Shown: positions 44,382 through 63,136 of the stretch, piece by piece
Position numbering within the stretch: the first letter of the stretch is position 1
Layout of the letters: every line of letters starts with the position of its first letter
DNA from: Candidatus Saccharimonadales bacterium
Lineage (GTDB): Bacteria > Patescibacteriota > Saccharimonadia > Saccharimonadales > JAYRRP01
Direction of reading: 5' to 3'
Assembly: GCA_041910055.1 (NCBI GenBank)
Contig: JAYRRP010000004.1
Span: forward strand, 2,678 to 66,677
Length of the DNA: 64,000 bases
Notes under the pieces: generated by a model
Told to the model about the DNA's origin: nothing
Databases searched by the model: none
The model's input: the letters and a program-made list of their open reading frames with translations, nothing else
Made by a program: the position numbers and the translations under genes

Positions 44382-44437
44382 ACTTAATAAGTAACTATAT
44401 CTAATTCAAGCTCTCTTTGCCAGTCAAACTGGTTGTG

Positions 44438-45020: not shown

Positions 45021-46625
45021 ATGAGTCAAGATGCTCGGCGAGATGATGAACGGGCCACTGAAAGACGTGCCCGTCTTTTAGAGCTGAATTATATTGATAC
45101 TTCGCAAATTGTGAATAAAGTGCTCTATAAAAACCTTATGCCCGTTGAGGAGCTATATAGAATGCGGGTTATTCCTCTCCAGGCCAGCGAACACGCAATT
45201 ACATTCGGGGTGACAAACACTACTTCGCAACATATGATGAATGAGATAACACAGCGTTTTCTAGACCAACGCGTGAGCTTTGCATTGATTTCTGAGATGG
45301 GTTATCACGAGTATATGCACCTGTATGACCCCCCTAAGCAGGTAGTGTATCAGGACATAGAACTCACGACAGCTGGTACTCAAGAGCTCATTGGGCGTGT
45401 TTCACAAATGTTAAACCAGGTACGTGCTGATGACATGTTGGCCTATCTGGTGCAGCAAGCGCATAAATTGGCTGCTTCTGATATTCATTTAGAAAACCAA
45501 ACTGAATACGTGCGTATTCGTTTCCGTATTGATGGCGTGCTTCATCCAGTGGCGCGGTTAACATATGAGAAATACCGGATTCTTATTTCAGCGGTGGCGA
45601 GTGCAGCCAACGTTTCTACTTCGGCCAGCGAACCGCAGCAGGGTCATATTAGGGAGCATGTAAAAATGGCTGATGGCAGCGAGGTCAACATTAACTTACG
45701 GGTAGAAACAGTGCCGGCTATTGGTGGTATGGATGTCGTGATGAGGCTATTTAATCTTGAGCCCGAGATGTATACCTTGGATCGTCTTGGATTGTCGCCT
45801 AAAGAACGTGCGGTAGTAGATGGCATCATAGAGAAACCAAGCGGCTTAGTACTTGCAGTTGGTCCAACTGGTTCAGGAAAAACCACCACCTTGTATTCCA
45901 TTCTGAATACCCTTAATAATGAGGAAAGGAAAATAATTACCATTGAAGATCCGGTTGAGTTCCAGTTCAACGGCATTACGCAGATTTCAGTCACTACTAA
46001 GACCGGTGAAGAAAGTCACTTTGCAAATAAATTAAGGGCTGTCCTTCGACTTGACCCTGACATTGTTATGGTTGGCGAAATCAGGGATCCAGACACGGCC
46101 AAAACGGCTCTTCAGGCATCGCTAACAGGGCATTTGGTCCTCTCTACCTTTCACGCTGCCTCTGCCTCTGCTGCCCTCACGCGTCTGCTGGATATTATTG
46201 GGGAAAATCCACTTTTTCTCTCAGCCATTCGATTGGTGATGGCGCAAAGGCTTGTTCGTAAACTTGATGACCAAACCAAGCAGGCTTATGACCCGCCCAT
46301 GGCAATAATTGAGAGTATCCAAAAGGTGGTTGCGGGATTGCCGCCGGGTTTGCCAAAGCCTTCACTGGAAGGTCTTAAATTGTATAGACCCGGTAGTTCA
46401 GCTGATAACCCCTACGGCTATAGAGGGCAGCTAGCTCTTCGCGAGCAATTTTTAATGAGCCGGGATATGGTGGAATTATTGCAAAAGAGCGGCAAACAAT
46501 TATCTACTCAAAATATAGAAGAGGCGGCGGTGAGAAGTGGCATGATGACTATGATGCAGGACGGTATCCTCAAGGTAATAGCCGGTCAGACGACTTTAGA
46601 AGAAGTATACAGAGTGCTCGATTAG
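45021..46625 (+). CDS. pilB: Type IV pilus/T2SS assembly ATPase (PilB/GspE family)
   Basis: T2SSE N-domain, Walker A GPTGSGKTTT, Asp box, Walker B/His box (VGEIRD, STFHA). Start moved from TTG 44997 to ATG 45021 (TATACT + 6 nt). Confidence 0.88.
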   Translation: MSQDARRDDERATERRARLLELNYIDTSQIVNKVLYKNLMPVEELYRMRVIPLQASEHAITFGVTNTTSQHMMNEITQRFLDQRVSFALISEMGYHEYMHLYDPPKQVVYQDIELTTAGTQELIGRVSQMLNQVRADDMLAYLVQQAHKLAASDIHLENQTEYVRIRFRIDGVLHPVARLTYEKYRILISAVASAANVSTSASEPQQGHIREHVKMADGSEVNINLRVETVPAIGGMDVVMRLFNLEPEMYTLDRLGLSPKERAVVDGIIEKPSGLVLAVGPTGSGKTTTLYSILNTLNNEERKIITIEDPVEFQFNGITQISVTTKTGEESHFANKLRAVLRLDPDIVMVGEIRDPDTAKTALQASLTGHLVLSTFHAASASAALTRLLDIIGENPLFLSAIRLVMAQRLVRKLDDQTKQAYDPPMAIIESIQKVVAGLPPGLPKPSLEGLKLYRPGSSADNPYGYRGQLALREQFLMSRDMVELLQKSGKQLSTQNIEEAAVRSGMMTMMQDGILKVIAGQTTLEEVYRVLD

Positions 46626-46638
46626 AGAGAACTTGGTT

Positions 46639-47781
46639 TCAAGTAATAACTCGGGCGATAGCGGGGATCAGCCTATCGTCAAATACATGAGGAATAATTT
46701 GTTGAGGTGAGGGTTTAGCCACTAGTTTAGCGATTGCTTCGGCTGCCTTGATCTTGTGTTGATCGGTGATTGAACTGACTTGGTGATCGAGTGCACCGCG
46801 GAAAATACCTGGAAACGCAAGCGCATTATTCACTTGATTATCAAAATCACTGCGTCCTGTGGCGACTATAGCTGCTCCAGCTGCTTTTGCCTCATCGGGC
46901 ATAATCTCTGGAGTGGGATTTGACAGGGCAAAAATTATTGGCTTTTTGCTCATGACTGAAATGTCAGCTTTTTTTAACATGCCTGGTTGGCTCACTCCGA
47001 TGACGATATCCGCCTCATGCAGAGCTTCATGCAGCGTACGTGGCATTAAGTGGTCAGGTGGAGGCTTACAGTATGAAGCGAGCAAGCGCTTTTCATTTGT
47101 TAAAGTATCGCGGGTTGCATCTATTACACCTTTTGAGTCAATTGCGATGATATCTGGATTTGCATATTTATGAAGTAACTTGGCGATAGCAACTCCAGCG
47201 GCACCGGCACCGATAAGGACAATACGGCAACTGGCTAGTGATTTTTTGACGACTTTGGTTGCATTTATCAGACCGGCAAGTACGACAACAGCTGTCCCAT
47301 GTTGGTCATCATGCATGACCGGAATAGACAGTGCATGTTTAAGGCGCTCCTCCACTTCAAAACAAGTTGGCGCAGCAATATCCTCCAGATTAATACCGCC
47401 AAAGCTCGGCGCGATGGCGGTGACAGCTGCCACTATTTCGTCTGGTTTGTGTACATCTAGAACAATTGGCACCGCGTCAATATTGGCGAAGTACTTGAAC
47501 AACATTGCTTTGCCTTCCATGACCGGTAAGGCACCCTGCGGACCGATATTACCTAGCCCCAAAACGGCTGACCCATCACTGATGATTGCTACGCAATTGT
47601 GAGTCCAGGTGTAATCTCTAGTTTCGCTTGGATGGGCCGCCGTGTAACGTGATACCTCGGCTACTCCCGGGGTGTAATAAATGCTTAATTTCTCTTGCGT
47701 GTCTAGCTTATCTTTTAAGGATAAAGCAATTTTGCCACCCAATTTTTTGTGTTGTTGCAAGGCCTTTTTTGCGTAATCCAT
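46639..47781 (-). CDS. NAD(P)-dependent malic enzyme (short form)
   Basis: YTPGVA, VISDGSAVLGLGNIG and LIGAGAAGVAIA motifs. 380 aa. Confidence 0.9.
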   Translation of the reverse strand: MDYAKKALQQHKKLGGKIALSLKDKLDTQEKLSIYYTPGVAEVSRYTAAHPSETRDYTWTHNCVAIISDGSAVLGLGNIGPQGALPVMEGKAMLFKYFANIDAVPIVLDVHKPDEIVAAVTAIAPSFGGINLEDIAAPTCFEVEERLKHALSIPVMHDDQHGTAVVVLAGLINATKVVKKSLASCRIVLIGAGAAGVAIAKLLHKYANPDIIAIDSKGVIDATRDTLTNEKRLLASYCKPPPDHLMPRTLHEALHEADIVIGVSQPGMLKKADISVMSKKPIIFALSNPTPEIMPDEAKAAGAAIVATGRSDFDNQVNNALAFPGIFRGALDHQVSSITDQHKIKAAEAIAKLVAKPSPQQIIPHVFDDRLIPAIARVIT

Positions 47782-47873
47782 GATTAATATAGTACTGCGT
47801 TTTTACAGGAATTGTGTATTTTTACCTTACAAGAGTTGAAAAAATGTGCGAATTCATGTAAAGTCTACTCGTT

Positions 47874-48371
47874 ATGCAATCTGTTCTTGTGAAATTGGGA
47901 GACCATTATAAAAAGTCGGCCACGCCTCAGGTACAATCTGGCGACACGGTACGTGTTCATCAGAAGATTCGTGAAGGTAATAAAGAGCGTACTCAGATAT
48001 TTGAAGGGCTGGTGATTCGAACTGGAAAAATGAACAGCCAAACTGCTCGGATTACTGTTCGGCGTGTGGCCAGTGGTATAGGTGTTGAGAAGTCCTATTT
48101 ACTACATTCACCATTGGTGCTTAAAGTTGAGGTAGTGAAGCGGAGCAAGGTCCGCCGTAATTATTTGAGCTATATGCGAGCTCGCACTGGAAAAGCGGCC
48201 AGGTTAGCATCTGTCGACTTCGACCGTGAGACAGTTAATAAGTTGGTCGCGCAAGATGAACCAGCTGCTGTTAAGGGACAACCAGCGGATAGCAGTGGTC
48301 AAGCTACAGCCACTGACGTGAAACAATCCAAAGAAGAAAACGCCCAAGTCCAGTCCGCTAAAGTTAGATGA
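47874..48371 (+). CDS. rplS: 50S ribosomal protein L19 with a ~55-aa C-terminal extension
   Basis: GDTVRVHQKIREGNKERTQIFEGLVI...VRRNYLSYMR L19 core. Polar, acidic tail. Confidence 0.92.
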   Translation: MQSVLVKLGDHYKKSATPQVQSGDTVRVHQKIREGNKERTQIFEGLVIRTGKMNSQTARITVRRVASGIGVEKSYLLHSPLVLKVEVVKRSKVRRNYLSYMRARTGKAARLASVDFDRETVNKLVAQDEPAAVKGQPADSSGQATATDVKQSKEENAQVQSAKVR

Positions 48372-48401
48372 TTTTTTAGGCTAGCAGAAGAAAAGTACAA
48401 C

Positions 48402-48800
48402 CTAGGGAGTAGGGTTTGTTGTAGCCCGATTGGCGAGTCGCCGGAACGCCTCGTCAGGGAGTTGGTTCAAAATTAGGTTATTTGCAAATTGTTCGCCTTG
48501 CCACATATTTGCCCCCTGCCATAAATCTTCGCTTGTATGCTCATAAGTCGCTTCTTCGAGATGCATGGCCATTTCTTCAGATGTAGAACCTAGTGGCTGA
48601 TAATGAAACTGATTGGCTAAATTATAAAGTTCTTCACCTGAAAGAGATTTTAGAGTCGGTAAGACGGCTTCATAAAAATATACAAGTTCTGTGTCTTGCC
48701 AGTAACGATTCATCACTTTCGCGCTGATCGGATATTTTAAATACTGCTCAGGCACTGCTTCGGGCAGATGTGTAGTTTCTGATTGAGGACTTGACTCCAT
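48402..48800 (-). CDS. Hypothetical acidic protein (132 aa)
   Basis: ORF with SD AAGGA upstream. No recognisable motif. Convergent with rplS. Confidence 0.55.
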   Translation of the reverse strand: MESSPQSETTHLPEAVPEQYLKYPISAKVMNRYWQDTELVYFYEAVLPTLKSLSGEELYNLANQFHYQPLGSTSEEMAMHLEEATYEHTSEDLWQGANMWQGEQFANNLILNQLPDEAFRRLANRATTNPTP

Positions 48801-48860
48801 CGATAAATCCTTAAGTGAGACTTATTTTACCACAAAAGTAAGTTGTGCTTTACTGGCCAC

Positions 48861-49424
48861 ATGGTAATTGGCGTAGATGAGGCGGGCAGAGGTGCATGGG
48901 CAGGTCCGCTTGCCGCAGCTGCCGTCGTATTGAAGTCGCCAATAGTTGGTATAAAAGATTCAAAACTACTGACATCTAGTCAACGTTTTCGCTATGCTGA
49001 ACAGATTATGACGCAAGGGATATGGGCGCTGGGCTGGACCGAAGCCTGGCAGATTGATAAATGGGGAATGACTGAAGCAGTTCGCTTCGCTATGCGTCAG
49101 GCGTTACTCGGAGTAGTGGCCCAAATAGAAGAGTATCAGCAGGTTATTGTTGACGGGCCATATAATTTTCTAGGAGATATGCCAAAAACGACCGCGGTCG
49201 TAAAAGCTGACACTTATTTGCCTTGTGTCAGTGCAGCCGGAATTATTGCCAAAACTCACCGAGACCTCTACATGCAAAATGTCGCGGAACAGTATCCGCG
49301 GTTTGGCTTTGATAAGCATGTTGGTTACGGTACTGCCCATCATCGGAAAATGATTGGTATCTACGGTCCAACTCCTATCCATCGTCAGTCGTTTCGTCCA
49401 ATCGCGGGAATGCAAAGTCAATGA
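48861..49424 (+). CDS. rnhB: Ribonuclease HII
   Basis: MVIGVDEAGRGAWAGPL (DEAGRG) catalytic motif. Start moved from GTG 48843 to ATG 48861 (TGcTTTACT + 6 nt). Confidence 0.9.
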   Translation: MVIGVDEAGRGAWAGPLAAAAVVLKSPIVGIKDSKLLTSSQRFRYAEQIMTQGIWALGWTEAWQIDKWGMTEAVRFAMRQALLGVVAQIEEYQQVIVDGPYNFLGDMPKTTAVVKADTYLPCVSAAGIIAKTHRDLYMQNVAEQYPRFGFDKHVGYGTAHHRKMIGIYGPTPIHRQSFRPIAGMQSQ

Positions 49425-49762
49425 ACACTAGCCTTGCCGGTCAAAAAGCTGAGACGGCTGTCATACGTTATCTAGAAAACAAACGGTATCAGTTGTTGGC
49501 GCGAAACTGGCGCACGCGGGTTTGTGAGATTGATCTGGTCATGAAAAAGAAGAAGACAGTCGTTTTTGTTGAGGTAAAGTACCGTTCTCAATCATTACAG
49601 GGAAGAGGTTTTGATTACATAACTCCACAGAAGTTACGACAGATGCGTTTTGCAGCCGAAACATGGGTATACCAACATGACTGGAAGGGTGAGTGGTTGC
49701 TGGCGGCCGCAGAAGTTACTGGCCCTGACTACGAAATTGATTTTATTGATCTGGTAACGTAA
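49421..49762 (+). CDS. yraN: YraN-family (UPF0102) endonuclease-like protein
   Basis: GEIDLV...VFVEVKYR PD-(D/E)xK-like core. ATGA overlap with rnhB, the conserved pairing. Confidence 0.85.
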   Translation: MNTSLAGQKAETAVIRYLENKRYQLLARNWRTRVCEIDLVMKKKKTVVFVEVKYRSQSLQGRGFDYITPQKLRQMRFAAETWVYQHDWKGEWLLAAAEVTGPDYEIDFIDLVT

Positions 49763-52337
49763 GTTCAAAGAATCGCTTGACTTCTTTTTGATCTCGTTGT
49801 CTCCATGACGTTTGCCACTGTAGCATCTCAAGGCCTTGTTGATAGGGACGTTCCAGGGCAGCGTTCAGATGCTTACCAAAAAAATCCTTGTATTGTGTAA
49901 TGAATTGGCTAGTAGAAGACACTCTCGCAACGTACAAGGGCATTCGGTAAAAACTAAGATCAGTGCCGAGGTTTGTTTCGAGCCATTGCCAATGTGAGGT
50001 TAACCAGTCCCAGGCTTGCAGGCGAGCATGACGATTCATAAAACTATAGGCAACCCAATACGAAACGTCTTGGTGTCGAACATGGGGGGAAGTAATCAAC
50101 GAGAGGGCTTCGTCAATTAGCTCAGGTTGTTTAAAGCTAGTCAGGGCAGCGGCCAACGTATTGCGTTCTTCGCTCAAACTTACCTTATCATATAGTTCTC
50201 GCAGTGCTTCAAATGTTGTGTGGTCACCGTGGCGTGCAACATTGCAAAAAACAATGCCTCTTAGGTCAGGGTCTATGCCGATTACCTTGGACGTTTGCAT
50301 GGAGTGAATAGATTGATCAAAGAGTCTGCGGCATTGCTCCAGGACTTCTTGATTATCAGCAACGGCGGATAAACTGAGAATAGTTGGTCGTAAGAGTTGG
50401 TCGAAATGTGACTCATTTTTTGATTTTTTCCAACCTAAGCGTGTATATTGGCGCGACACTAGATTTCGCGTAAAGGGCTTCATTTGTTCGCGGATATCCT
50501 GAAAGTCGCCCATTATGGCTCTAATTGAGGCTAATGCTGCCGAGATGATATCCCATACCGCATAATTATCTTCATTTGTAAAATAGCGGAGGAGATGTAG
50601 TGCCTCTGCGGTGTCAGCATTCCCAGCCTTGGCAGTTTCAAAGGCGTCACTCAGTATACTGAGGCGATCCAGTGGTGAGAAATGTCCACGCTGTACTTGT
50701 TCGCCCAGATGTTCAAGATGAGTGGCATTATAAGTAACCCGGTAAAATCCACTTTGGCCAGCATTAAGTTTTAAAGCGTGTGGATCGGCAAGAGAGTAAT
50801 GGCCTGACACAGAAGTAAGCATATCGGGCAGAGCGGTGGTGTTGGCGAGAAGTGGGATTGGCCACGTCATATCAGGTAGCTCAGAATGCTTTGGGTTAAT
50901 CAGAAAACGTCGTTGTTTGAGCTTCAATTGTTTTTCGTCCACCTCGGCTACGAGTAAAGGGAAACCGGCTTGCGAGGTCCAGGCCTGCATAATGCGTGTT
51001 ACTGGCTTAGACGAGATATCTTCCAAAGATTGCCATAAATCTTCGGTTCGCGCGTTACTAAAAGCGTGTTTCTTTAGATAATAACGCAGTCCTTCGCGAA
51101 AATCGTGTGGGCCTAGGTAGCGGTATAGCATATGAATTACGCTGGCTCCCTTGCTGTAGCTGATGGTGTCAAAAATTGTGCGTATTTCATCAGGATGATC
51201 AACATTGACTTCTACCGGATGGGTGTGCTCGAGGGCATCTAATTTTAAGCCTTGCTGTTGTTCGTCAATAATAAACTGAGTCCACATCTGCCAGTCAGGG
51301 AAGAATTTATCGACAGCGAGATATTCGATCCAGCTGGCAAATCCTTCATTCAGCCATAAATCAGTCCACCATTCCATCGTCACGAGGTTACCAAACCACT
51401 GGTGGGCTAGTTCATGGGCTACCACCATCGCTACGTATTGTTTGTTCGAAAGAGTAGAATTTACAGGATCAACGAGCAAGGTTTGTTCTCTAAACGTAAT
51501 ACATCCCCAATTTTCCATTGCGCCCGACGCAAAATCCGGCAAGGCTACCAAGTCACATTTGGGAAGGGGATAATCAGTGGCAAAGTAGCTGTCAAAAAAA
51601 TCAAGGCACTTTACTGCCACAGAAAGTGCAAATTTTGTAAACTCTTCATTACCGGGAGTTGCGTAAGTGCGGACTTTCACACTTTTCTTAGTGGTAGCCT
51701 GTAGATATTTCATCTCACCAATGACGAATGCCAGTAAGTAAGAAGACATACGTGGGGTGGTGGCAAACTCACTTTCCGTGACGTCTTTCTTATGCTGCTG
51801 TGATACCAGGGGTGTATTAGCGATGACTGTCAAATCTTTTGGTGCGATAAGTTTGAGGTCAAAGGTGGCTTTGGCAGCTGGTTCGTCGATACAGGGGAAT
51901 ACTTCCCGGGCATGGTGACTCTCAAACTGGGTAGCAATGAGCTTCTTGTGCATCCCTTGATGAGTAAAGAGGCAAGGATAAATGCCATTCATCTGGGGTG
52001 TAATGGTTCCCTTAAAATGCAGAGTGACAGTATAACGTCCGGGTGGCATCATAATTTTAGAATGTAAGCGAACTTCATCGTAACCTTTGTGATAATTGAT
52101 GCGGTCTATGGTTATTTCTTTATCGTCATTTTTGGTGTGTGCCATAACATGAACGTTCGAAATAGACAGCCCTTTTTGGTGAAAAGTGAGCCGTTGGCTG
52201 GGCCGCTGTTTTTTTAGGCCGCTGATAATCACAGAGCCCGAAAAGGTCATTGTCTTGGGTTGGATGTGAAGTTCAAGAATGTAGTGGCGCGGTTCAAATT
52301 GCGAGTGTAAGCGTCTTACCTTTTTTCCCATGAACAT
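49743..52337 (-). CDS. pepN: M1-family aminopeptidase N
   Basis: GAMENWG exopeptidase motif and HELAHQWFGN-x18-E zinc site. The start may be the third codon (ATG 52331). Confidence 0.93.
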   Translation of the reverse strand: MFMGKKVRRLHSQFEPRHYILELHIQPKTMTFSGSVIISGLKKQRPSQRLTFHQKGLSISNVHVMAHTKNDDKEITIDRINYHKGYDEVRLHSKIMMPPGRYTVTLHFKGTITPQMNGIYPCLFTHQGMHKKLIATQFESHHAREVFPCIDEPAAKATFDLKLIAPKDLTVIANTPLVSQQHKKDVTESEFATTPRMSSYLLAFVIGEMKYLQATTKKSVKVRTYATPGNEEFTKFALSVAVKCLDFFDSYFATDYPLPKCDLVALPDFASGAMENWGCITFREQTLLVDPVNSTLSNKQYVAMVVAHELAHQWFGNLVTMEWWTDLWLNEGFASWIEYLAVDKFFPDWQMWTQFIIDEQQQGLKLDALEHTHPVEVNVDHPDEIRTIFDTISYSKGASVIHMLYRYLGPHDFREGLRYYLKKHAFSNARTEDLWQSLEDISSKPVTRIMQAWTSQAGFPLLVAEVDEKQLKLKQRRFLINPKHSELPDMTWPIPLLANTTALPDMLTSVSGHYSLADPHALKLNAGQSGFYRVTYNATHLEHLGEQVQRGHFSPLDRLSILSDAFETAKAGNADTAEALHLLRYFTNEDNYAVWDIISAALASIRAIMGDFQDIREQMKPFTRNLVSRQYTRLGWKKSKNESHFDQLLRPTILSLSAVADNQEVLEQCRRLFDQSIHSMQTSKVIGIDPDLRGIVFCNVARHGDHTTFEALRELYDKVSLSEERNTLAAALTSFKQPELIDEALSLITSPHVRHQDVSYWVAYSFMNRHARLQAWDWLTSHWQWLETNLGTDLSFYRMPLYVARVSSTSQFITQYKDFFGKHLNAALERPYQQGLEMLQWQTSWRQRDQKEVKRFFELTLPDQ

Positions 52338-52361
52338 TAGTCTAGCATGGGTAGTCGCAGG

Positions 52362-52390
52362 TTGACATTTTGGCGTTTGTTTATTACAAT
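52362..52390 (+). promoter_or_regulatory. Consensus-like sigma70 promoter of nusA
   Basis: TTGACA (52362-52367), 17 nt, TACAAT (52385-52390). Confidence 0.65.
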
Positions 52391-52414
52391 CTAAGAGCTG
52401 TTACAGAAGTAGTG

Positions 52415-52443
52415 ATCCGGCCAGTCATAAGGTCGGATTTTTT
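52415..52443 (+). terminator. Intrinsic terminator/attenuator inside the nusA leader
   Basis: AUCCGGCC-agucauaa-GGUCGGAU (8 bp including one G-U) followed by a run of six T (52438-52443, counting the last stem base). Lies between the promoter and the SD AAGGAAGGA. Confidence 0.6.
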
Positions 52444-52477
52444 GATGTATTTTTAGTAAAAAGGAAGGAATATAGAT

Positions 52478-53653
52478 ATGGAATTAGACATGAAACAACT
52501 AGCGACGGCAGTGCGGGTAATTGCAGAAGAAAAAAACTTACCAGAAGCCACTGTTCAGGAAACTGTAGAACAAGCCTTGGCAGCGGCCTACAGGCGCGAC
52601 TATGGCGAGAGAGAACAAGAAGTCAGAGTAACTATGAACTTAAATACCGGTGAAGTGGATGCCTATGTGGAGAAGGAAATAGTAGAGAAAGTAGAGGATC
52701 CACGTTCAGAAATTACGCTGGGAAAGGCACAAACCCTTCAGAAAAATGCGAAGTTGGGTGACATGGTTGAGGTACACGAAAAGGTTGAGGAATTTGGCCG
52801 TGTAGCCGCCCAAACGGCGAAACAGGTAATTCTACAACGGCTTCGGGAGGCAGAACGCGAAATTGTAGTAGCTGAATTTGATGACAAAATCGGTACAGTG
52901 GTCAATGGGATAGTCTCAAGGGTTGAGGGTAATATTGTCAGGATAGACCTGGGAAAAGCTCAAGGTATTATGCCCAAAGGTGACCAGATACAAGGCGAGC
53001 GCTACTATCCTGGGCAACGACTGAAGGTCTACCTGAAAGACATTGAACGAGGCTTCCGTGGTCCACAATTAGTAGTCAGTCGGGGCAATACACAGTTCAT
53101 TGAATGGCTTTTTAAGGCTGAGGTACCGGAGATGGAGAACGGTGCAGTGGAAATTAAGGAAATAGCGCGTGAAGCGGGAGTTCGTACTAAGCTGGCCGTG
53201 CATAGTACAGTGCCAGGAGTTGATCCAGTTGGTACATTTGTAGGTGGACATGGTACTCGCGTGAATGCGGTGGTAAGCGAGATTGGTGAGCAGGAAAAGA
53301 TAGATATTGTGGTCTGGAACGAGAACCCGGTTACATATATTACAAACGCTTTAAGCCCTACTAAAGTTATTAATGTAAGCCTGGATAAGAATGCGAAGAA
53401 AGCGGCTGTCACAGTTCCGGATGACCAGTTGAGTATTGCAATTGGCAAAAGTGGCCAGAATGTCCGTTTAGCGAGTAAGCTAACGGGTTACGAAATTGAT
53501 ATTGAGGCGGAAAATGAAGCGACACGACGAAGTAAAAAAGAAGAGAAGGCTCCTGTTGCTAAAAACAGCCCAGTGCCCAAGCTAAAAAAGAAAGAACAGC
53601 TTGAAAGTAGCTTACTAGAGGCAATTGAAGAACACGGCGAAGAAAAGGCGTAA
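52478..53653 (+). CDS. nusA: Transcription termination/antitermination factor NusA
   Basis: N-terminal domain, S1 domain (VNGIVSRVEGNIVRIDLG), two KH domains (GKSGQNVRLASKLTGYEIDI). Confidence 0.95.
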   Translation: MELDMKQLATAVRVIAEEKNLPEATVQETVEQALAAAYRRDYGEREQEVRVTMNLNTGEVDAYVEKEIVEKVEDPRSEITLGKAQTLQKNAKLGDMVEVHEKVEEFGRVAAQTAKQVILQRLREAEREIVVAEFDDKIGTVVNGIVSRVEGNIVRIDLGKAQGIMPKGDQIQGERYYPGQRLKVYLKDIERGFRGPQLVVSRGNTQFIEWLFKAEVPEMENGAVEIKEIAREAGVRTKLAVHSTVPGVDPVGTFVGGHGTRVNAVVSEIGEQEKIDIVVWNENPVTYITNALSPTKVINVSLDKNAKKAAVTVPDDQLSIAIGKSGQNVRLASKLTGYEIDIEAENEATRRSKKEEKAPVAKNSPVPKLKKKEQLESSLLEAIEEHGEEKA

Positions 53654-53770
53654 AGAATATTTTCTTATCGTTTTTTTGTCGTTCTCAATTCTTAGGACTT
53701 GCACACGGGGTGTATAATTTTAAGTGTAGTAGTTATTAAAAAATAAAAGTATTTTACTTAGGTTAAATCT

Positions 53771-54325
53771 ATGTTTGCCCAAAATAGCATGCCAATGGTT
53801 CACAAGTGGGAAGTAAAGAAGAATTTTATTCAACCTGAGCAAGCCCGCCGGGTTGGAGAACAAGCACTTTTACTTAGTATGTTAGACGAAACCCGTCTGC
53901 GACATTTCGAAAAAGTTGATGATTTCCCGCAACAGATAGCCCTTGGGCGCGTACTTTCTGAAGCTAGTGAGGATAGGTTCAGAATAAACGCAGATGAACT
54001 TCAAGACTTATCCAAGCTGCACGATAAGGCGGTGGAAGAAGGCTATGGAGCTAATTTACTTTCTATTAGAAGGTTAGATGTGGGGAGTGATCATACTGGG
54101 CGCGAAATATTTCCAGGTACACACTTGACTGTGAATTGCATTGGCGAAGCAGCTTTGCGTGTCTATGAGCATGTAGGACCGCTCTCAGAGGTTCCACCAG
54201 AAGTTACTTTGGAGCCGGGGGATGCTTATATTACACACAACCCCATACGAGATAAGCCGGCTACTCATCTACGCAACTTGTCTAGCCATCACGAGCATAT
54301 ATCTGTTACTATCACACAGATATAG
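53771..54325 (+). CDS. Hypothetical protein (184 aa)
   Basis: ORF in the nusA-clpC gap. AT-rich upstream region, no clear SD. No recognised motif. Confidence 0.55.
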   Translation: MFAQNSMPMVHKWEVKKNFIQPEQARRVGEQALLLSMLDETRLRHFEKVDDFPQQIALGRVLSEASEDRFRINADELQDLSKLHDKAVEEGYGANLLSIRRLDVGSDHTGREIFPGTHLTVNCIGEAALRVYEHVGPLSEVPPEVTLEPGDAYITHNPIRDKPATHLRNLSSHHEHISVTITQI

Positions 54326-54329
54326 TAAA

Positions 54330-54356
54330 TTAGCACTCTTGACTCGTGAGTGCTAG
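54330..54356 (+). promoter_or_regulatory. CIRCE (HrcA operator) inverted repeat
   Basis: TTAGCACTC-ttgactcgt-GAGTGCTAg versus the consensus TTAGCACTC-N9-GAGTGCTAA, 17/18 matches. Confidence 0.8.
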
Positions 54357-54366
54357 TTGATATGAT
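54339..54366 (+). promoter_or_regulatory. clpC promoter overlapping CIRCE
   Basis: TTGACT (54339-54344, in the CIRCE spacer), 16 nt, TATGAT (54361-54366). ATG at 54384. Confidence 0.55.
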
Positions 54367-54383
54367 AGTTATAGCGGCTTTTA

Positions 54384-56888
54384 ATGTCCGCCGGAAAGAA
54401 TCAAGAATATATGCTTCCAAGTTCACCTGATTTTCAGGAATTTATTAACCATCTGACTGACAATGCACTGCACAGTCTGAAGCATGCAGATGCAGTTGCT
54501 CGTAGTTTTGGGAGCGCCTATGTGGGCACAGAGCATCTTCTACTCGGTGTTCTGGCGCAGGAATCTTCAGTTGGCGCCAAGTTACTGGAAGGCGCTGGGG
54601 TAACCTTAGACAGGGCCCGCTTAGCTTTGAACCTGACACCTAAGACATTGGTAATTAATATGGGCGCAAAAGGCCTTAGTGAAACGGCCAAACTGACTCT
54701 ACGGATGGCTTATGACATTGCTCAGGACCTTAACCAAGAACATTGTGGGACAGAACATATCTTGAGCAGTATCTTGCGTCAAAAGAATGCCCGCGCGACT
54801 ATTTTACTGAGAGATATGAACATAGATGTGCTGCAACTGCAGAATGAGCTGGAACTATACCTGAACCGGCAAGGTTATGGAGGCTCAGCGTCATCATCAA
54901 ACACTGGACGTCGTGGTAAAAAGGCCCGCAAAACTGCTCTTGATTTTTTTGGTACTGATTTAACGGCCCAAGCCCGGGAGGGTAAATTGGATCCTGTTGT
55001 GGGACGTGAGGCCCAAATCCGGCGGGTGGTGACCATTCTTAATCGACGGACAAAAAATAACCCTGTATTGATTGGTGAACCAGGGGTAGGGAAAACGGCT
55101 ATTGTTGAAGGACTTGCACAAAGAATTGTGACTGAAGATCTACCCGATAGCTTACTTGATAAGCGGATTATTATGCTCGATCTAGCAGGTATGATTGCCG
55201 GTACAAAATACAGGGGCGAATTTGAAGAAAGGCTTAAAAAAGTCTTATCTGAACTAGAAAATGATACTCATACAATTCTGTTTATTGATGAACTGCATCT
55301 TATTGTGGGCGCCGGAGCGGCAGAAGGTGCGATGGACGCCGGCAGCATTCTTAAACCGCCGCTGGCGCGCGGTAAAATCCAAGTAATTGGCGCCACAACG
55401 ACAGCTGAGTATACCAAACACATTGAAAAAGATGCAGCACTTGAGCGGCGTTTCCAGCCGATTCAAGTTCCCCCGGCTACCAGCAGCGAGACTCTGCAGA
55501 TTCTAAAGGGACTACGTAAGCATTATGAGTCTTACCATAACGTCAAAATTGCTGATAATGTGCTTGAAGATACCGTGACACTGGCCAGTCGCTATATAAA
55601 TGACCGTTATCTGCCCGATAAGGCGATTGATCTGTTGGATGAGACTGCAGCTTATCTACGGGTTGACAGAGGCAAGACGCCGCCGGAGGTAAGAAAGCTT
55701 CAGAAAGAATTGAAGTTATTGAATGTTCGTCTGGAAGATTCGGTTGATAACCAGGACTACGAAAAGGCAGCCCAATACAAAACTCGCGCCAGTCAAATTA
55801 GCGAACAATTAAAGAAGTTACACAGTAGTGGTAAAGGGCGGCAGAAGCTATCAGTCAGCAGTGAAGATATCGCTGAAGTGGTGGCGCGAATGACCGGTAT
55901 CCCCGTTAAGCGGGTGGTAAGGGCCGAAGCTAAACACTTACTTCATTTGGAAAAGACGCTAGGTAAGTATGTGATAGGTCAAGAAGAAGCCGTATCTGCA
56001 GTCGCCAAAGCTATCCGACGAAATCGCTCAGGAGTATCCAGTGAGCAGCGGCCAATTGGCTCCTTTGTGTTCTTAGGTCCTACAGGAGTTGGCAAAACAG
56101 AACTAGCCCGGGTCCTCGCACGTGAGTTTTTTGGCAGTAGCGAGGCGCTCATCAAGATTGACATGAGCGAATTTGGCGAACGTCATACAGTTTCACGCTT
56201 AGTTGGTGCACCAGCTGGTTATGTAGGCTATGAGGAAGGCGGTCAATTAACTGATCGGGTTCGGCGACAACCCTATAGCCTCATTTTGTTTGACGAAATT
56301 GAGAAGGCCCACCCCGAGGTCTTTCATATGCTGTTACAGATTTTAGAAGACGGTGTTTTGACTGACGCCAAAGGTCGACAAGTTGATTTTACGAATACCA
56401 TTATTATTATGACTAGTAACTTAGGGGCTGAAAAATTACAAAAAGAAGCTTCGCTTGGGTTCCATGCCAGCAATGCAGAGGATCTTAAAAATCTCGATGA
56501 ACTCCATAATCGTAATAAAAGTAAAGTACATGATGAATTAAAACGCATGATGCGCCCGGAACTCATTAACCGGATTGATAAAATTATAGTCTTCCGGGCA
56601 CTGACTAAAAAAGATGCCCTTAAGATACTTGACCTGCAAATAGAAGAACTAAGGCAGCGTCTGCTTAGACAAGGCATGGGACTTGAATTATCGGCAAGGG
56701 CAAAACGACATTTGTTGGAAGAGGGTTACGATGCTCATAATGGTGTGCGTCCACTTCGACGTTTACTGCAGGATACAATTGAAGACCATATCGCTCATCA
56801 CTTGCTTGATAGCCAATATACAAAAGGTGATATTATCCAAGTGGGCGTAAAAGACAAGCAACTTGCATTCAGTGCGGTCCAAGAATAA
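54384..56888 (+). CDS. clpC: ATP-dependent Clp protease ATP-binding subunit ClpC
   Basis: Two Clp_N repeats. Walker [10 protein letters not shown] and [12 protein letters not shown]-like linker ([12 protein letters not shown]). 834 aa. Confidence 0.93.
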
Positions 56889-56932
56889 CCATAAGTTGCT
56901 CGGCGTGCCCCTGGAGCAATAGAATAATACTT

Positions 56933-57910
56933 ATGCAAAGAAATCGAACGTCGCGACTCATTCTTTCCTGTGTTTTTACGTTTGCGGTCTTTGCTGTCTT
57001 ACTAGTTGGCTTTTGGTTCCGACAAGACGCGTATGACTGGTTACGTCTAAGGCAGTACCAACCGTCGGCAGCCATTGCCCAGTTGGCTGAACACACCACT
57101 ATGACGCCGAAAGCTACACACCTTTTTTATGTCCACCATCCAGTTCTGGCAGATAAAGTTTCATTCAATGAACACTGTCGTGAAAATGAGCAGACAATTG
57201 TACTGGGGTGTTACGTTGCAAATCGAGGAATATACCTGTTTGATGTGACAGATTCACGCCTTTCGGGTGTCGAGGAAGTGACGGCGGCCCATGAAATGTT
57301 GCATGCTGCCTATGACCGTCTGTCAGCAGATGAGAAACAACGGGTCAACCAGCTTATTCATAATGCTTACGGCCAAGTTACTGATGAACGCATTAAGAAG
57401 GTAATTGGTCAGTATCAAAAAATGGGAGCAGACACAGACAACGAACTGCACTCCATCTTAGGTACAGAGGTCGCCACTTTACCAGCCGAACTTGAACAAT
57501 ATTACAGTCGCTATTTTGCAAATCGCCAAGCAGTCGTGACATTTTCAGAAAAATACGAGGCTGTTTTATCGCAGAGGAAAGATCAAGTTGCAGACTATGA
57601 CCAGCGTCTGTCTGCTTTAAAAGCGGAAATCGATGAGAACCAGAATGACCTTGATCAAGAATCTGAAGCTTTGAAGGGAGAACGCCAGAGATTAAATTCT
57701 CTGCTTTCTAACAACCAAGTGGAAGCCTACAACGCAGGAGTAAATGACTTTAATGAAAAAGTAAGAACGCTCAATGCAAAGGTGAACCAAACCCGCGGCT
57801 TAATAGAGGAGTACAATAACTTGGTGAAAGAACGAAATAACATCGCTTTAGAAGAACAAGAACTTATTAAATCGCTCGATAGTCGACTCACAAACCCGAC
57901 TGAGCTGTAA
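56933..57910 (+). CDS. Membrane-anchored HExxH protein with a C-terminal coiled coil
   Basis: N-terminal TM (LILSCVFTFAVFAVLLVGFWF), AAHEMLHAAYD (HExxH) and a ~130-aa heptad-like Q/E/N/L-rich tail. Confidence 0.6.
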   Translation: MQRNRTSRLILSCVFTFAVFAVLLVGFWFRQDAYDWLRLRQYQPSAAIAQLAEHTTMTPKATHLFYVHHPVLADKVSFNEHCRENEQTIVLGCYVANRGIYLFDVTDSRLSGVEEVTAAHEMLHAAYDRLSADEKQRVNQLIHNAYGQVTDERIKKVIGQYQKMGADTDNELHSILGTEVATLPAELEQYYSRYFANRQAVVTFSEKYEAVLSQRKDQVADYDQRLSALKAEIDENQNDLDQESEALKGERQRLNSLLSNNQVEAYNAGVNDFNEKVRTLNAKVNQTRGLIEEYNNLVKERNNIALEEQELIKSLDSRLTNPTEL

Positions 57911-57928
57911 TCTGTTAGACTAATACAT

Positions 57929-59275
57929 ATGGGAAAAAGTACGAGCGCAGGGACCTTCGTCTGCCAGAATTGTGGAGCACAACATGGTAGCTGGTCTGGT
58001 AGGTGCCACGTCTGCGGGGAATGGAACACCATTGTACAACGAGTTGATGATGAGATAGTGTCAAGTAAAGGAAAGTCATTGGTTGCTCATCCTATTGGAG
58101 GAAAGACCAAAGCAAAATCTCTGACACGTTTCACAAGCGGAATGAAGGAAATGGATACTGTTTTGGGTGGGGGACTTGTACCTGGTAGTCTTACCTTGCT
58201 GGCCGGCCAGCCAGGTATTGGCAAGAGTACGCTAGTATTGCAGCTTGCCAGTTACGTATCACGACAACATTCAGTCCTTTACGTCAGTGGTGAGGAATCA
58301 GCCGAACAAATAAATCTTCGTGGCCAGCGGTTGGATATTTCCCCCGGTAGCCTACAACTGGCAAATTCAAGTAGTGCGGATGATATTACCCGAACCATCT
58401 TAGATGGTCAGTATCAACTTGTAGTAGTAGATTCTATTCAAACTATGACAGTTAACCAGGTTGGTTCAGCAGCTGGTACCATGAGTCAAATTACTAATAG
58501 CACGCAGTTGTTATTACAAGCCGCGAAGCTGACTACAACGGCAGTAGTCATTGTTGGTCACGTGACGAAAGAGGGGTCTATTGCTGGACCTAAAGTGCTT
58601 GAACATATCGTAGATGTAGTATTGCAACTCGAAGGTGATCGTTACGGAGGTTTTAAGTTACTGAGAGGCGTGAAGAATCGTTTTGGCTCTACGAATGAGG
58701 CCGGTATATTTGAAATGACTGACCATGGCCTTCAGGCCGTAGAAAATCCTTCAGCTGTCTTGTTAGCTGAGCGGCAAGTAACTGACGGCTCAGTGGTATT
58801 AGCCACAATGGAGGGGACTAGGCCACTGCTCGTTGAAGTGCAGGCACTCGTGAACCGGACTAATTACGGCTACCCGAAGCGGACAGCCAGCGGTGTTGAT
58901 ATTAATCGTGTGAACTTACTGATTGCGGTATTAGAGCGCCGCACACGCTTGAACCTGGCAGACCAGGATATATATATCAATGTAGTCGGGGGAATAAAAG
59001 TCCAGGAACCAGCAGCGGACCTGGCGATTTGTATGGCAATTGCCTCAGCTTCAAAAGGCATGCAGCTAAAACGGAATGTAGCGGTATTTGGGGAAGTAGG
59101 ATTATCTGGTGAAATTCGTCATGTGCCTTTTGCGGATAAGCGGCTAGCAGAAGCCCGGAAACTTGGATTTGATGGAGCACTTGGTCCTCGTAAGCAAGGA
59201 ACCAAAAAAATACCCGGCCTTTTTGGCGTTTCAGCCATGAGAGATGCACTAAATCAATTTTTGGAGAAAGAATGA
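57929..59275 (+). CDS. radA: DNA repair protein RadA/Sms
   Basis: Zn finger CQNCGAQHGSWSGRCHVCGEWNT, Walker A GQPGIGKST, KNRFG motif, Lon-like C-terminal domain. Confidence 0.95.
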   Translation: MGKSTSAGTFVCQNCGAQHGSWSGRCHVCGEWNTIVQRVDDEIVSSKGKSLVAHPIGGKTKAKSLTRFTSGMKEMDTVLGGGLVPGSLTLLAGQPGIGKSTLVLQLASYVSRQHSVLYVSGEESAEQINLRGQRLDISPGSLQLANSSSADDITRTILDGQYQLVVVDSIQTMTVNQVGSAAGTMSQITNSTQLLLQAAKLTTTAVVIVGHVTKEGSIAGPKVLEHIVDVVLQLEGDRYGGFKLLRGVKNRFGSTNEAGIFEMTDHGLQAVENPSAVLLAERQVTDGSVVLATMEGTRPLLVEVQALVNRTNYGYPKRTASGVDINRVNLLIAVLERRTRLNLADQDIYINVVGGIKVQEPAADLAICMAIASASKGMQLKRNVAVFGEVGLSGEIRHVPFADKRLAEARKLGFDGALGPRKQGTKKIPGLFGVSAMRDALNQFLEKE

Positions 59276-60015
59276 TTACATTACAATTATTGCAGATTGG
59301 ACTGCTTGTTACTCTTATTATACTGATTTTGGGACCACGCAAGACGTGGATGCATGGAACAAAAAAAGGAAAAACAACCAGCAGTATCGTACTTGATACC
59401 TGTGCGTTGATAGATGGTCGGATTGAAGATTTAGTACGGATTGGTTTTATAGAAGGTAGGTTGATAATCCCGCAGTTTGTTATTAACGAACTGCAGCAGC
59501 TGGCTGATGGTGGTGATTCGCAAAAACGGGCCCGGGCTCGCTTTGGTCTTGACGTAGTGCGTAATCTCCAGCAGGAATCATTAAACGAAGTATTTATCCA
59601 CCAAGGAGAATATCCGAGAGAACCTGACATTGACGCTAAGCTTGTGCATCTCGCTAGTGATGAGAAAGCAGCACTTTATACCACTGATTATAATTTGAAT
59701 AAAGTAGCAAAAATTGCAGGAGTGAAAGTATTAAATGTGCATGAACTAGCTGGGGTACTCAGAGTGGTAGCCCTACCAGGTGAAACCCGCCAGATTAAGA
59801 TCGTTCAAAAGGGAAATGCGAAAGGACAGGGGGTTGGATATTTAGAGGATGGCACGATGGTAGTTGTTGATGGTGCCGCTAATCTTATTGGCAAAAAAGT
59901 CAATCTGACGGTAACGCGCATACATCAAACAGATGCAGGAAAAATGATTTTTGGCACACACAGTAGCTCACTAAATACACTAAAAAGAAAGATTGCTTCT
60001 TCTAAGGCCGCTTAA
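59272..60015 (+). CDS. PIN + TRAM domain protein (YacL-like)
   Basis: ATGA overlap with radA. N-terminal TM, PIN (VLDTCALIDGRI), C-terminal TRAM (GVGYLEDGTMVVVDG). Confidence 0.82.
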   Translation: MITLQLLQIGLLVTLIILILGPRKTWMHGTKKGKTTSSIVLDTCALIDGRIEDLVRIGFIEGRLIIPQFVINELQQLADGGDSQKRARARFGLDVVRNLQQESLNEVFIHQGEYPREPDIDAKLVHLASDEKAALYTTDYNLNKVAKIAGVKVLNVHELAGVLRVVALPGETRQIKIVQKGNAKGQGVGYLEDGTMVVVDGAANLIGKKVNLTVTRIHQTDAGKMIFGTHSSSLNTLKRKIASSKAA

Positions 60016-63000
60016 ACGTGACACTTGCGCTTAGTCCCCCGGAAGCAATAACAGTTGCAGTATAATTACCATTTCCGCCGTTACAAGTGTTGACAGTTAG
60101 CGACGTACTGCTGGTTGAGCTGGTAAAACACTGACCCCCAGCCCCAGGGCCACTTACCGTTAGAGAATAAGGAGAAGAACCACCTGCCCAGCTAACGTTG
60201 AATGGGGACGAAGGACCGACGCCTTGTCCGCTGGCGGGGGACGTTATTACTAAAGGGCTGCTGTTTCCCCCGCCTCCAAAATCAACATTTACACTGTCAC
60301 TTCCATCGTACAAGACACTATCAATTATTTCTGCTCTGACTTGTTTGCTGCCACTGGTTGCGACCGCATAAGTCAGGCTAACAGTACCGGGACTCCCTAT
60401 GGTAGCAGTCTGCACAACTTGGCCATCAATTATTAAGTTGACAGTTCCCTTGAACTTATCGCTTGATAGTGGATGAGTGCCCTGGTTGACATTCAGTGTA
60501 AAGGTACACGAACCATTACAGGTAGAGGGAGCACCAATGAAGCTAATCTGGGGGCGTGCATCGTCACACTTGTGTACATCATCTTTTTCATCAGTATTTG
60601 ATGAGGCAGACCCGCCAGGTACGAATCTATCCCCGGAGAATGAATTGGCCGCCGCATCATTGGTCTGCATTTTTGCCCGGTCTGGGGTACACTCGGTCGC
60701 CAATTTGTTTGATACCTTATCGATCACTTTGGGAGTGGTGTTTGTCTTTTTATTTTGTTGGTACCAAGATGGGAATATATCATTGCTAGGACTTGGTTCG
60801 ACAGAGCCTACACCCACATGATTGCGCACCACATAAGCTGGTAGAGTTTGTACCCCACTTGGTTTGACGCGTTCCTCAGGCTTTAGGTTGTCATGTACCC
60901 GATGCATCCAGCCACTCCAAATTGGTTCTGTCATCGTTTCCATGAAACCACGCATCTCTCTTTGGCGGGTATGATAGCCAACCCAGACACCAGCAGCATA
61001 CTGGGTAGAGAAGCCCATTAATAAACCATCTTTTGTGTCATTTGTAGTACCGGTTTTCAAAGAAAACTTGTGGTTCTTATAACGATGTGGTTTTTTACTA
61101 AAGTAGCTGGCATTTGGGTCTGCCATCATGTCGGCCACAATATAGGCAGCGTCTGGTCTGACGACTTGGTCTCCTTTTGTTGGCTTCCATTCATCAACTT
61201 TTTTGCCGCCTGCGTCGGTAATTTTAAGGATATAAGTTTCTGGGATATATTGTCCGTTGCGCGAAATGGTTGAATAAGCATGAACGTGTTCGTCAAGATG
61301 CAAGTAGGCACCGTCACCGATAGCTGACGAAGCGTAACAGGGGCCTTCTTTAGTTAGTTTATCGTCATAGTAACACTTGTAGCCACTTTTAAGGCCAAGC
61401 TTCTCAGCTGTATCAATAGTTTTATTTATGCCTGCGGTGAGCATAGCTTTTACAGCTGGAACGTTACGGGAACCACCCAGCGCATAGCGGAGAGTTAATG
61501 GGCCGGGATATTTAAAGTCATAATCCCATAGACAGTTACCACCTTGTTTTGGCTGGGCTTTATTGGTACAAGGATAACCTTCTAAGGGTCCTTGAGTATC
61601 ATATAAGACTGATCCGGCACCCGAATTATTGGTGTTTTCTATCAATGAAACATAGTCATAGGGTTTGAAACTGGAGCCTGGGGGTAGTGGCGAAGTGGCA
61701 TAATTAAACTGACCAAAGTCAGGATTTGAAAAATCAGACCCGCCAACCAATGCTACGATCTGACCTGTCTTGACATCTTCACCCACAAAAGCCGCCGTGT
61801 CGCCCCCCTGACGACGGACCTGGGCCATCCCCTTATTTACTTCTTCTTCGGCAATTTTCTGTTTATCAAGATCAAGTGTGGTTGTTACGTTCCACCCTCC
61901 TCGTTGTACAGTTTGGTTCCCAAACTTGTCCTCAAGCTGTTTCTTCGCTGCCAGGACGAACCAAGGCGCTTTAATACCGTCATATTTCGGTTTCCGTGGT
62001 TTTACCGACGCGATCACGTCAGTTTTCTTGGCCTGTTCGAGTTGATCTTTCGTGATTTTACCTTGCTGCTGCATGAGTTCGAGTACATATTGTTGTCGAC
62101 CAGTGAAGGCTTCTTTATCGAAATCGGCACTGTATGGGGAGTAATAGCGTGGAGATTTGGGAATAGTTGCGAGCATAGCGGCCTCTTCTAAGGTCAGATC
62201 TTTGGCTGACTTATCAAAGTAGTCACGCGCGGCTGCCTCAACCCCATATTCAATACCGCCGTAAGGTGCTGTATTTAAGTAACCAGTCAGTATTTCTTGT
62301 TTCGTATAGGTTCGTTCAAGTTCTACGGAGAGAATTAGTTCTTTCACCTTGCGGGTATAACTCCGGTCTTTGCTCCAGTTTTGTGTCAATTTTACTAATT
62401 GCTGAGTAATAGTCGACCCACCTTGGGTGGTACCCGAGTTTCCAAAGAAGTTATTCCAACCGGCTCGGACAATGCCTCTAGTGTCGAAACCACCATGCTT
62501 AAAGAAGTCTTTATCCTCAACTGCAACAGTTGCGTCCTTCACATACTGAGAAATCTCAGGATCCTTCACTGGGATGCGCTTTACCGCATCATAGTCTTCC
62601 CACAACAGTGTCTGACCAGAACGGTCATAGTAACGCATACTTCCACCGATGTTGCTCCCGGAAATATCTTTTAGGTTTGGTAGATCTTTACGGAAATAAG
62701 CAAAAACACCAATAAGTAATAAGAAACCAACTGCAAAACCGACGCCCAGAATCTTGAGCGCCATAATAGCACCATCACGGCTGAACCAGTATTTGGCTAA
62801 ATGACGTGGACGGAGACGATAAAAAAGGCGTTTTATAGGAGTCTTTGGCATACCGGCCAATCGAGTGGCTTTTCGCTGGGCGCGTTGGTCTTTCCGGGCG
62901 ATTACCCGTTCTGCGAGACTACGGTGTACTTTTATAACCTTCCCACTTTTGGTTACAAAATGATTTTTACCGACCCGACGTGATTGTTTGCCGGGTTGCC

Positions 63001-63016
63001 TTTTAAAAGCTTTCAT
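60002..63016 (-). CDS. Class A penicillin-binding protein (PBP1A-type transglycosylase/transpeptidase) with a ~250-aa C-terminal extension
   Basis: GT motifs EDKDFFKHGG and GGSTITQQ. TP motifs SSFKP, SRN and KTGTT. G/S/T-rich beta-type tail. Confidence 0.92.
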   Translation of the reverse strand: MKAFKRQPGKQSRRVGKNHFVTKSGKVIKVHRSLAERVIARKDQRAQRKATRLAGMPKTPIKRLFYRLRPRHLAKYWFSRDGAIMALKILGVGFAVGFLLLIGVFAYFRKDLPNLKDISGSNIGGSMRYYDRSGQTLLWEDYDAVKRIPVKDPEISQYVKDATVAVEDKDFFKHGGFDTRGIVRAGWNNFFGNSGTTQGGSTITQQLVKLTQNWSKDRSYTRKVKELILSVELERTYTKQEILTGYLNTAPYGGIEYGVEAAARDYFDKSAKDLTLEEAAMLATIPKSPRYYSPYSADFDKEAFTGRQQYVLELMQQQGKITKDQLEQAKKTDVIASVKPRKPKYDGIKAPWFVLAAKKQLEDKFGNQTVQRGGWNVTTTLDLDKQKIAEEEVNKGMAQVRRQGGDTAAFVGEDVKTGQIVALVGGSDFSNPDFGQFNYATSPLPPGSSFKPYDYVSLIENTNNSGAGSVLYDTQGPLEGYPCTNKAQPKQGGNCLWDYDFKYPGPLTLRYALGGSRNVPAVKAMLTAGINKTIDTAEKLGLKSGYKCYYDDKLTKEGPCYASSAIGDGAYLHLDEHVHAYSTISRNGQYIPETYILKITDAGGKKVDEWKPTKGDQVVRPDAAYIVADMMADPNASYFSKKPHRYKNHKFSLKTGTTNDTKDGLLMGFSTQYAAGVWVGYHTRQREMRGFMETMTEPIWSGWMHRVHDNLKPEERVKPSGVQTLPAYVVRNHVGVGSVEPSPSNDIFPSWYQQNKKTNTTPKVIDKVSNKLATECTPDRAKMQTNDAAANSFSGDRFVPGGSASSNTDEKDDVHKCDDARPQISFIGAPSTCNGSCTFTLNVNQGTHPLSSDKFKGTVNLIIDGQVVQTATIGSPGTVSLTYAVATSGSKQVRAEIIDSVLYDGSDSVNVDFGGGGNSSPLVITSPASGQGVGPSSPFNVSWAGGSSPYSLTVSGPGAGGQCFTSSTSSTSLTVNTCNGGNGNYTATVIASGGLSASVTFKRP

Positions 63017-63136
63017 TAATATCTCTTTGATAACTCCTTCAAGATCTCTACTATTATAGCAAATTTAGCCACCAGGCAAACTATAAGACGTAAGCATTAT
63101 TTACGGATATCTACCTTGGGTTATACTAAGGGTAAT

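Follow-up and report, generated by a model that had tools for sequence, protein, structure and literature searches.

The window analysed here, a stretch of 64,000 nt from Candidatus Saccharimonadales bacterium, carries a clpC-type gene whose promoter overlaps a CIRCE-like repeat, with nusA and a 184-aa ORF (u184) on the upstream side and the genes for a 325-aa HExxH protein, RadA and a PIN/TRAM protein on the downstream side (Table 1). From 44384 to 64000, the window was 100% identical to a Logan assembly contig.

Table 1 Features of the clpC locus, in window coordinates.
Feature	Position	Strand	Basis and remarks
nusA, conserved upstream neighbour of the CIRCE-clpC unit	52478..53653	+	Pfam, NCBIfam, synteny
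184-aa ORF (u184)	53771..54325	+	no Pfam/NCBIfam match; stop codon 4 nt before CIRCE
CIRCE left arm TTAGCACTC	54330..54338	+	sequence match; 10-sequence alignment
CIRCE 9-nt spacer TTGACTCGT, holding -35 hexamer TTGACT (54339-54344)	54339..54347	+	sequence; promoter scan
CIRCE right arm GAGTGCTAG	54348..54356	+	one mismatch: final base G, not A
Extended -10 TGaTATGAT, -10 hexamer at 54361-54366	54358..54366	+	promoter scan
clpC-type Hsp100 unfoldase, 834 aa as called	54384..56888	+	Pfam and NCBIfam matches
Conserved Saccharibacteria-specific 325-aa protein	56933..57910	+	N-terminal membrane helix, HEMLH, long coiled coil
radA (sms)	57929..59275	+	TIGR00416, 509.7 bits, over cut-off
PIN/TRAM protein (YacL-like)	59272..60015	+	Pfam; start overlaps radA end by 4 nt

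Re-reading of the sequence bore out the first-pass annotation of the repeat, whose two arms and spacer (54330-54356) read TTAGCACTC TTGACTCGT GAGTGCTAG and match the CIRCE consensus TTAGCACTC-N9-GAGTGCTAA at 17 of 18 positions. Nothing else in the 64 kb resembled CIRCE at up to three mismatches (0.05 expected from shuffles), and a composition-aware calculation gave 5.5e-5 sites expected by chance in the window with at most one mismatch. The arms are exactly 9 nt apart, as they are in all relatives. The same annotation had placed the -35 hexamer inside this spacer, and the promoter scan agreed: the clpC promoter, TTGACT-16 nt-TATGAT (10/12 positions, with a TG extended -10), overlaps CIRCE, was the top sigma-70-type match in 53600-57100, and ends 17 nt ahead of the ATG at 54384. 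The right arm of the repeat ends 4 nt before the -10 hexamer, and the extended -10 begins 2 nt after the arm.

The clpC product has the domain content of a ClpC-type class I Hsp100, with two Clp_N repeats, two AAA+ modules, a short UVR middle domain and a docking loop. In Pfam terms it comprises two Clp_N repeats, AAA, a UVR motif, AAA_2 and D2-small; the Walker A motifs are at 231 and 565, and an LGF ClpP-docking tripeptide is at 691-693. ClpP itself occurs in the Saccharibacteria phylum. The call of the start codon is ambiguous. The first ATG (54384) is without a Shine-Dalgarno sequence; because ClpC is annotated with 825 and 824 aa in close relatives, and because the L002 and L003 N-termini can be aligned with the window protein from its second ATG onward, the start at ATG 54411 (825 aa) is more likely than that at 54384. 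Counted from the predicted transcription start, the leader would be ~38 nt for a start at 54411 and ~11 nt for one at 54384. A leader is thus present in the window, as in L002 and L003, unlike in L004, L006, L033 and L183. In these last four loci the start codon lies 6-7 nt past the -10 hexamer (at ~4016-4060 in L004, ~3948-3990 in L006 and ~3954-3995 in L033), a spacing that implies leaderless clpC and clpP mRNAs.

Downstream of clpC, the HExxH, radA and PIN/TRAM genes named in the first-pass annotation were all found. The 325-aa protein carries HEMLH at residue 120, with H120-E121-xx-H124 invariant among homologues, and a coiled-coil hairpin of ~120 residues (AlphaFold pLDDT 90). Neither a Pfam family nor a PDB fold matched it, and the named members of its family are all labelled Saccharibacteria or Saccharimonadales. 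Its gene is syntenic in L002, L003, L006 and L109, and its counterpart in the cultured Southlakia epibionticum is SEML1_0511. There, nusA (SEML1_0513), a Clp ATPase (SEML1_0512), this hypothetical gene, radA (SEML1_0510) and PIN/TRAM (SEML1_0509) are followed by a convergent PBP gene (SEML1_0508) (PMC10633639), a nusA-to-PBP gene order identical to that of the window. Between nusA and the Clp ATPase gene, S. epibionticum has a gap of 196 nt. In the window, the PBP1A gene (-) converges on the PIN/TRAM gene (+), and the 3' ends of the two share 14 nt (60002-60015). Since clpC and the 325-aa gene are 44 nt apart, the 325-aa gene and radA 18 nt apart, and radA and the PIN/TRAM gene overlap by 4 nt, with no terminator predicted between any of them, the three downstream genes are probably co-transcribed with clpC. 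Elsewhere in the window, a SAM riboswitch (RF00162, 56.6 bits) at 1012-1128 lies directly before metK (1127-2287), an ordinary arrangement.

Conservation of the repeat upstream of clpC

We assembled 80 clpC loci from species-representative genomes, 5 from Saccharibacteria and 75 from other phyla. The best genome matches to the window ClpC, with identities of 72%, 61%, 50% and 47%, came from uncultured Candidatus Saccharibacteria, together with one of 48% from Candidatus Nanosyncoccus. In a comparison of the clpC upstream regions of relatives, a check proposed in the first-pass annotation, CIRCE with 0-2 mismatches lies immediately upstream of clpC in 5/5 Saccharibacteria loci (L002, L003, L004, L006 and L033; ClpC identity 47-72%), and upstream of clpC in none of the 75 loci from other phyla, even at up to three mismatches. 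Two Clostridia loci of the 75-locus set carried a CIRCE away from clpC.

The embedded promoter is kept together with the repeat. In all five Saccharibacteria loci the spacer holds a hexamer of -35 type (TTGATA, TTGACG, TTGCAT, TTGACA and TTGTTG); the spacer opens with TTG in four of the five, and the TTGACG of L003 is shifted by 2 nt. A TAnnnT -10 hexamer follows 17 nt past the -35 in every relative (16 nt in the window). Four metagenomic clpC loci (L109, L154, L150 and L196) also carry CIRCE upstream of clpC; they were fetched by the CIRCE pattern, and the independent evidence they provide comes from their -10 boxes only. When 10 Saccharibacteria-type clpC upstream regions were aligned, only the arms, the -35 TTG and the -10 TAnnnT were conserved, and the flanks were not; the left arm is kept across the alignment except for an A-to-G change at its third base in L003. 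In a further locus (L114, 1380-1650), a Clp ATPase without Clp_N, which starts near the first AAA module and is 47% identical to the window ClpC, sits behind a CIRCE-in-promoter (TTGCAC, then TGcTATGAT).

The gene preceding CIRCE differs between loci: the window has u184 in this place, L002 an unrelated membrane ORF of 107 aa, and L003, L033 and L109 have nusA itself. No u184 homologue was detected by tblastn in L002, L003, L033 or L109. The CIRCE-to-clpC distance stays constant while the upstream gene varies, and the repeat therefore belongs to clpC; u184 is outside the regulatory unit, inserted between nusA and CIRCE.

We then considered CtsR as the regulator of clpC. In place of ctsR-mcsA-mcsB, the window has nusA and the 184-aa ORF before clpC, and no CtsR box occurs near the gene; two matches at three mismatches lie far away, against 2.4 expected. 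A Pfam scan of the window ORFs of at least 120 aa outside 11304-13823 and 44438-49424 revealed no ctsR, mcsA or mcsB domains; for most of the region 44438-49424, precomputed Pfam calls exist. The CtsR box (A/G)GTCAAA-NAN-(A/G)GTCAAA, at up to one mismatch and in flanks of up to 4 kb on each side, was found in 0/5 Saccharibacteria loci, whereas eight Clostridia loci of the same set, serving as a positive control, had a CtsR box 2-3 kb upstream of clpC. CtsR was not found at any Saccharibacteria locus examined, and neither CtsR nor McsB is present in the S. epibionticum annotation tables (PMC10633639). These results confirmed the absence of the CtsR box and of ctsR, mcsA and mcsB at the locus, as noted in the first-pass annotation, and we rejected CtsR control of clpC. 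That annotation had gone further and described clpC as rewired into the HrcA regulon. The conserved CIRCE supports HrcA control, but not an ancestral CtsR state; CtsR may never have been in the lineage, and 'rewired from CtsR' goes beyond what the data show.

HrcA and the other genes that carry the operator

No hrcA, groES or dnaK was detected in the 64-kb window (Pfam, nearly all ORFs of at least 120 aa, those outside 11304-13823). In the phylum, a short HrcA (~240 aa; PF01628 and PF03444) is widespread, with thousands of metagenomic relatives of 235-242 aa, some of them labelled Candidatus Saccharibacteria by NCBI. The winged helix of the short HrcA aligns to Thermotoga maritima HrcA (PDB 1STZ) with E = 4e-16. 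Among the HrcA proteins encoded downstream of CIRCE, the short forms (from Saccharibacteria-type and other, possibly CPR, loci) are 217-245 aa (L159, L179, L108, L111 and L193) and are without one contiguous central block of ~100 aa found in the 343-370-aa forms (L121, L155, L192 and L173). For S. epibionticum HrcA, the ECOD assignment is limited to the 1STZ winged-helix and sensor domains, and the absent block thus appears to match the domain that is inserted in the T. maritima structure. Given this absence, dimerisation and regulation of the short HrcA may differ from those of canonical HrcA.

The cultured S. epibionticum encodes hrcA as SEML1_0720 (729 bp; PF01628 and PF03444), beside grpE and dnaK (Wang et al. 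2023, PMC10633639). By Tn-seq, its hrcA is essential, and clpC, the HExxH gene, radA and clpP are non-essential (PMC10633639). Essentiality is unusual for a chaperone repressor and may reflect toxicity of the derepressed regulon. In one RNA-seq contrast of TM7x, a non-heat-shock comparison, the Clp ATPase of the locus and radA fall together with groES/EL and dnaK/J (PMC10768705 supplement), a co-decrease that is weakly consistent with shared HrcA control.

Scanning metagenomes for CIRCE with a TTG-initial spacer returned at least 120 loci, which tell which genes bear the design and not how frequent it is. Among the matches listed, the first gene downstream encoded HrcA in at least 30 cases, DnaK in at least 9, GroES in at least 8, DnaJ in at least 6, HtpG in at least 4, Clp ATPases in at least 5 (plus 2 truncated), ClpP in at least 2, Hsp20 in at least 2, and others. 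A -10 box stood at the right spacing in 55 of 121 sites among the matches listed, compared with a 4% background, and these include all DnaK, DnaJ and ClpP cases. The operator-in-promoter design thus occurs in metagenomes before hrcA, dnaK, dnaJ, clpC and clpP.

Four loci whose HrcA is >60% identical to the Saccharibacteria type (L124, L146, L148 and L177) have separate operators before hrcA, dnaK and dnaJ; the locus edge truncates the hrcA or dnaJ side of L124 and L146. Upstream of dnaK there are two tandem CIRCE sites (L124 2960-3031, L146, L148, L177, L130, L161 and L189), the first of which encloses the -35, while the second (TTGGCACTC-N9-GAGTGCTAA) follows ~19 nt later, over the predicted transcription start. 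Behind a CIRCE-in-promoter we also found clpP (PF00574), at 11213-11853 in L183 and at 2516-3162 in L147. The gene order in L183 is hisS-tig-orf-CIRCE-clpP, and the clpP ATG lies only 6 nt past the -10 box. This locus looks Saccharibacterial from its tig-x-clpP order, as in S. epibionticum, and from a PBP1A fragment 61% identical to the PBP1A of the window. On the sequence evidence, HrcA in Saccharibacteria appears to control chaperone genes (hrcA, dnaK and dnaJ) together with clpC and clpP.

Proposed mechanism and competing explanations

We consider it highly probable that the repeat serves HrcA as a functional CIRCE operator, built into the core promoter of the clpC operon. With the -35 box inside the spacer and the extended -10 starting just past the right arm, an HrcA dimer bound to both arms would sit over the -35 box and over the stretch between it and the -10 box. 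Arm-bound HrcA would keep RNA polymerase off the clpC promoter. When unfolded proteins build up, HrcA would lose its activity and clpC would be transcribed, probably together with the three genes downstream of it; a reach of HrcA control to the HExxH, radA and PIN/TRAM genes is plausible. In Bacillus subtilis, GroEL keeps HrcA active, and HrcA activity is lost when GroEL is titrated away. More tentatively, and with slightly less than even confidence, we suggest that this mini-HrcA could be the single master regulator of proteostasis in Saccharibacteria, and probably in other CPR, governing hrcA, dnaK with its double operator, dnaJ, clpP, the clpC operon with radA, and possibly hsp20/groES through the -35-in-spacer design, often with leaderless mRNAs.

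The first-pass annotation had itself raised an alternative, namely that the repeat is only the terminator of the upstream gene. In its general form, an intrinsic terminator or 3'-stabilising hairpin of u184 or nusA that is merely CIRCE-like, this explanation seems very improbable to us. It would account for a repeat that begins 4 nt past the stop codon of the upstream ORF and folds as RNA into an 11-bp hairpin (nine arm pairs and two flanking; -15.6 kcal/mol), and the sequence past the repeat is fairly T-rich in some relatives (TTTGTTATTAT in L006 and L033). However, the repeat in the window is without a T-run after it (TTGATATGAT), encloses a 9-nt loop, was not called by the terminator scan, and has a folding z-score of only -1.26 against shuffles, and we rejected a Rho-independent terminator on these counts. 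Furthermore, the arms keep the exact CIRCE letters at 47% ClpC identity rather than varying while remaining paired, their distance to the clpC -10 is fixed while the upstream gene changes, and the same motif stands before hrcA, dnaK, dnaJ and clpP.

A chance or relic palindrome without regulatory role, with clpC expressed constitutively, deserves even less credence. Such a palindrome would fit the one right-arm mismatch and the lack of hrcA among the genes found in the window, and the non-essential clpC of S. epibionticum in Tn-seq suggests that tight control is possibly unneeded; against it stand the small number of sites expected by chance (5.5e-5), the retention of both site and embedded promoter at 5/5 orthologous loci, and the function of Mollicutes sites with up to two mutations (PMC5138195). 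It is also improbable, though marginally less so than a terminator, that a different regulator reads a real operator in place of the short HrcA, or that HrcA acts on it in another manner (e.g. as a GroEL-independent temperature sensor). The missing central block of ~100 aa in Saccharibacteria HrcA and the essentiality of hrcA in S. epibionticum could both be taken in this sense, but the winged-helix DNA-binding domain is well conserved, hrcA bears the same operator, which is the usual sign of autoregulation, and no other candidate regulator was seen.

Relation to known heat-shock regulons

HrcA control of clpC through a CIRCE in its promoter can be set beside several known systems. To our knowledge, very little is known of gene regulation in Saccharibacteria and in the wider candidate phyla radiation, and full-text literature searches for HrcA or CIRCE in Saccharibacteria or Patescibacteria brought up nothing relevant. 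The class I regulon of B. subtilis (hrcA-grpE-dnaK-dnaJ and groESL) shares with our loci the operator TTAGCACTC-N9-GAGTGCTAA, a PF01628/PF03444 repressor and an operator preceding hrcA itself; it differs in that the target here is the clpC operon and that the repressor here is ~100 aa shorter. The B. subtilis CIRCE lies between promoter and start codon, whereas the operator here encloses the -35 box. In the class III system of B. subtilis, clpC belongs to the operon ctsR-mcsA-mcsB-clpC-radA-disA, followed by yacL. The order clpC, radA, PIN/TRAM (YacL-like) is the same here; however, ctsR, mcsA, mcsB and the CtsR box are absent, with CIRCE in their stead, the gene for a membrane HExxH protein separates clpC from radA, and disA is missing.

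The first-pass annotation had stressed that a Clp unfoldase lies outside the classical groESL and dnaK targets of HrcA. HrcA control of the unfoldase gene is supported, but it is less unusual than that annotation implied, given the precedents of clpB, lon and clpL. In Mollicutes, the HrcA regulon comprises dnaK, clpB and lon (Chang et al. 2008; PMC5138195; PMC7737663); CIRCE with up to two mutations is functional there, and double CIRCE copies were reported in Spiroplasma (PMC5138195). Mollicutes resemble the present case in being genome-reduced, in having HrcA as the only stress regulator reported, with an Hsp100 ATPase and a protease in its regulon, and in the double CIRCE copies at the dnaK promoter, as in the Saccharibacteria-type loci. 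They differ in that the targets here are the ClpP-coupled ClpC and, in L183 and L147, clpP, rather than ClpB and Lon, and in that the phylum here belongs to the CPR / Patescibacteria. A further precedent, clpL of Lactobacillus gasseri, is cited as being under HrcA in PMC3192767. It is likewise a Clp-family ATPase gene repressed through CIRCE, a repression that is inferred in our case; CtsR is also present in that organism and the target there is one accessory ATPase, whereas here it would be the main ClpC/ClpP.

The new elements are the CPR lineage, ClpC and ClpP as targets, and the geometry of an operator set in the promoter; HrcA control of Hsp100s and proteases is known. The present findings extend the known HrcA/CIRCE system and leave the workings of HrcA and CIRCE as known unchanged. 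They offer a concrete, testable regulon, in which a single repressor and a single operator design would serve chaperone genes as well as ClpC/ClpP, and a parallel to the likewise genome-reduced Mollicutes, where an Hsp100 and a protease are also folded into the HrcA regulon. If the short HrcA were indeed a master regulator, its regulon would be the first to be described for the candidate phyla radiation and would couple DNA repair (radA) to the sensing of protein damage. The compact, conserved promoter-operator might also serve as a stress-inducible expression element in Saccharibacteria, which are now open to genetic manipulation (PMC10633639). Outside this lineage, CIRCE was observed before ClpL-like and zinc-finger ClpE-like genes on low-GC, Lactobacillales-looking contigs (L112 400-900 and L140 9080-9520), and these sites fit the published HrcA control of clpL.
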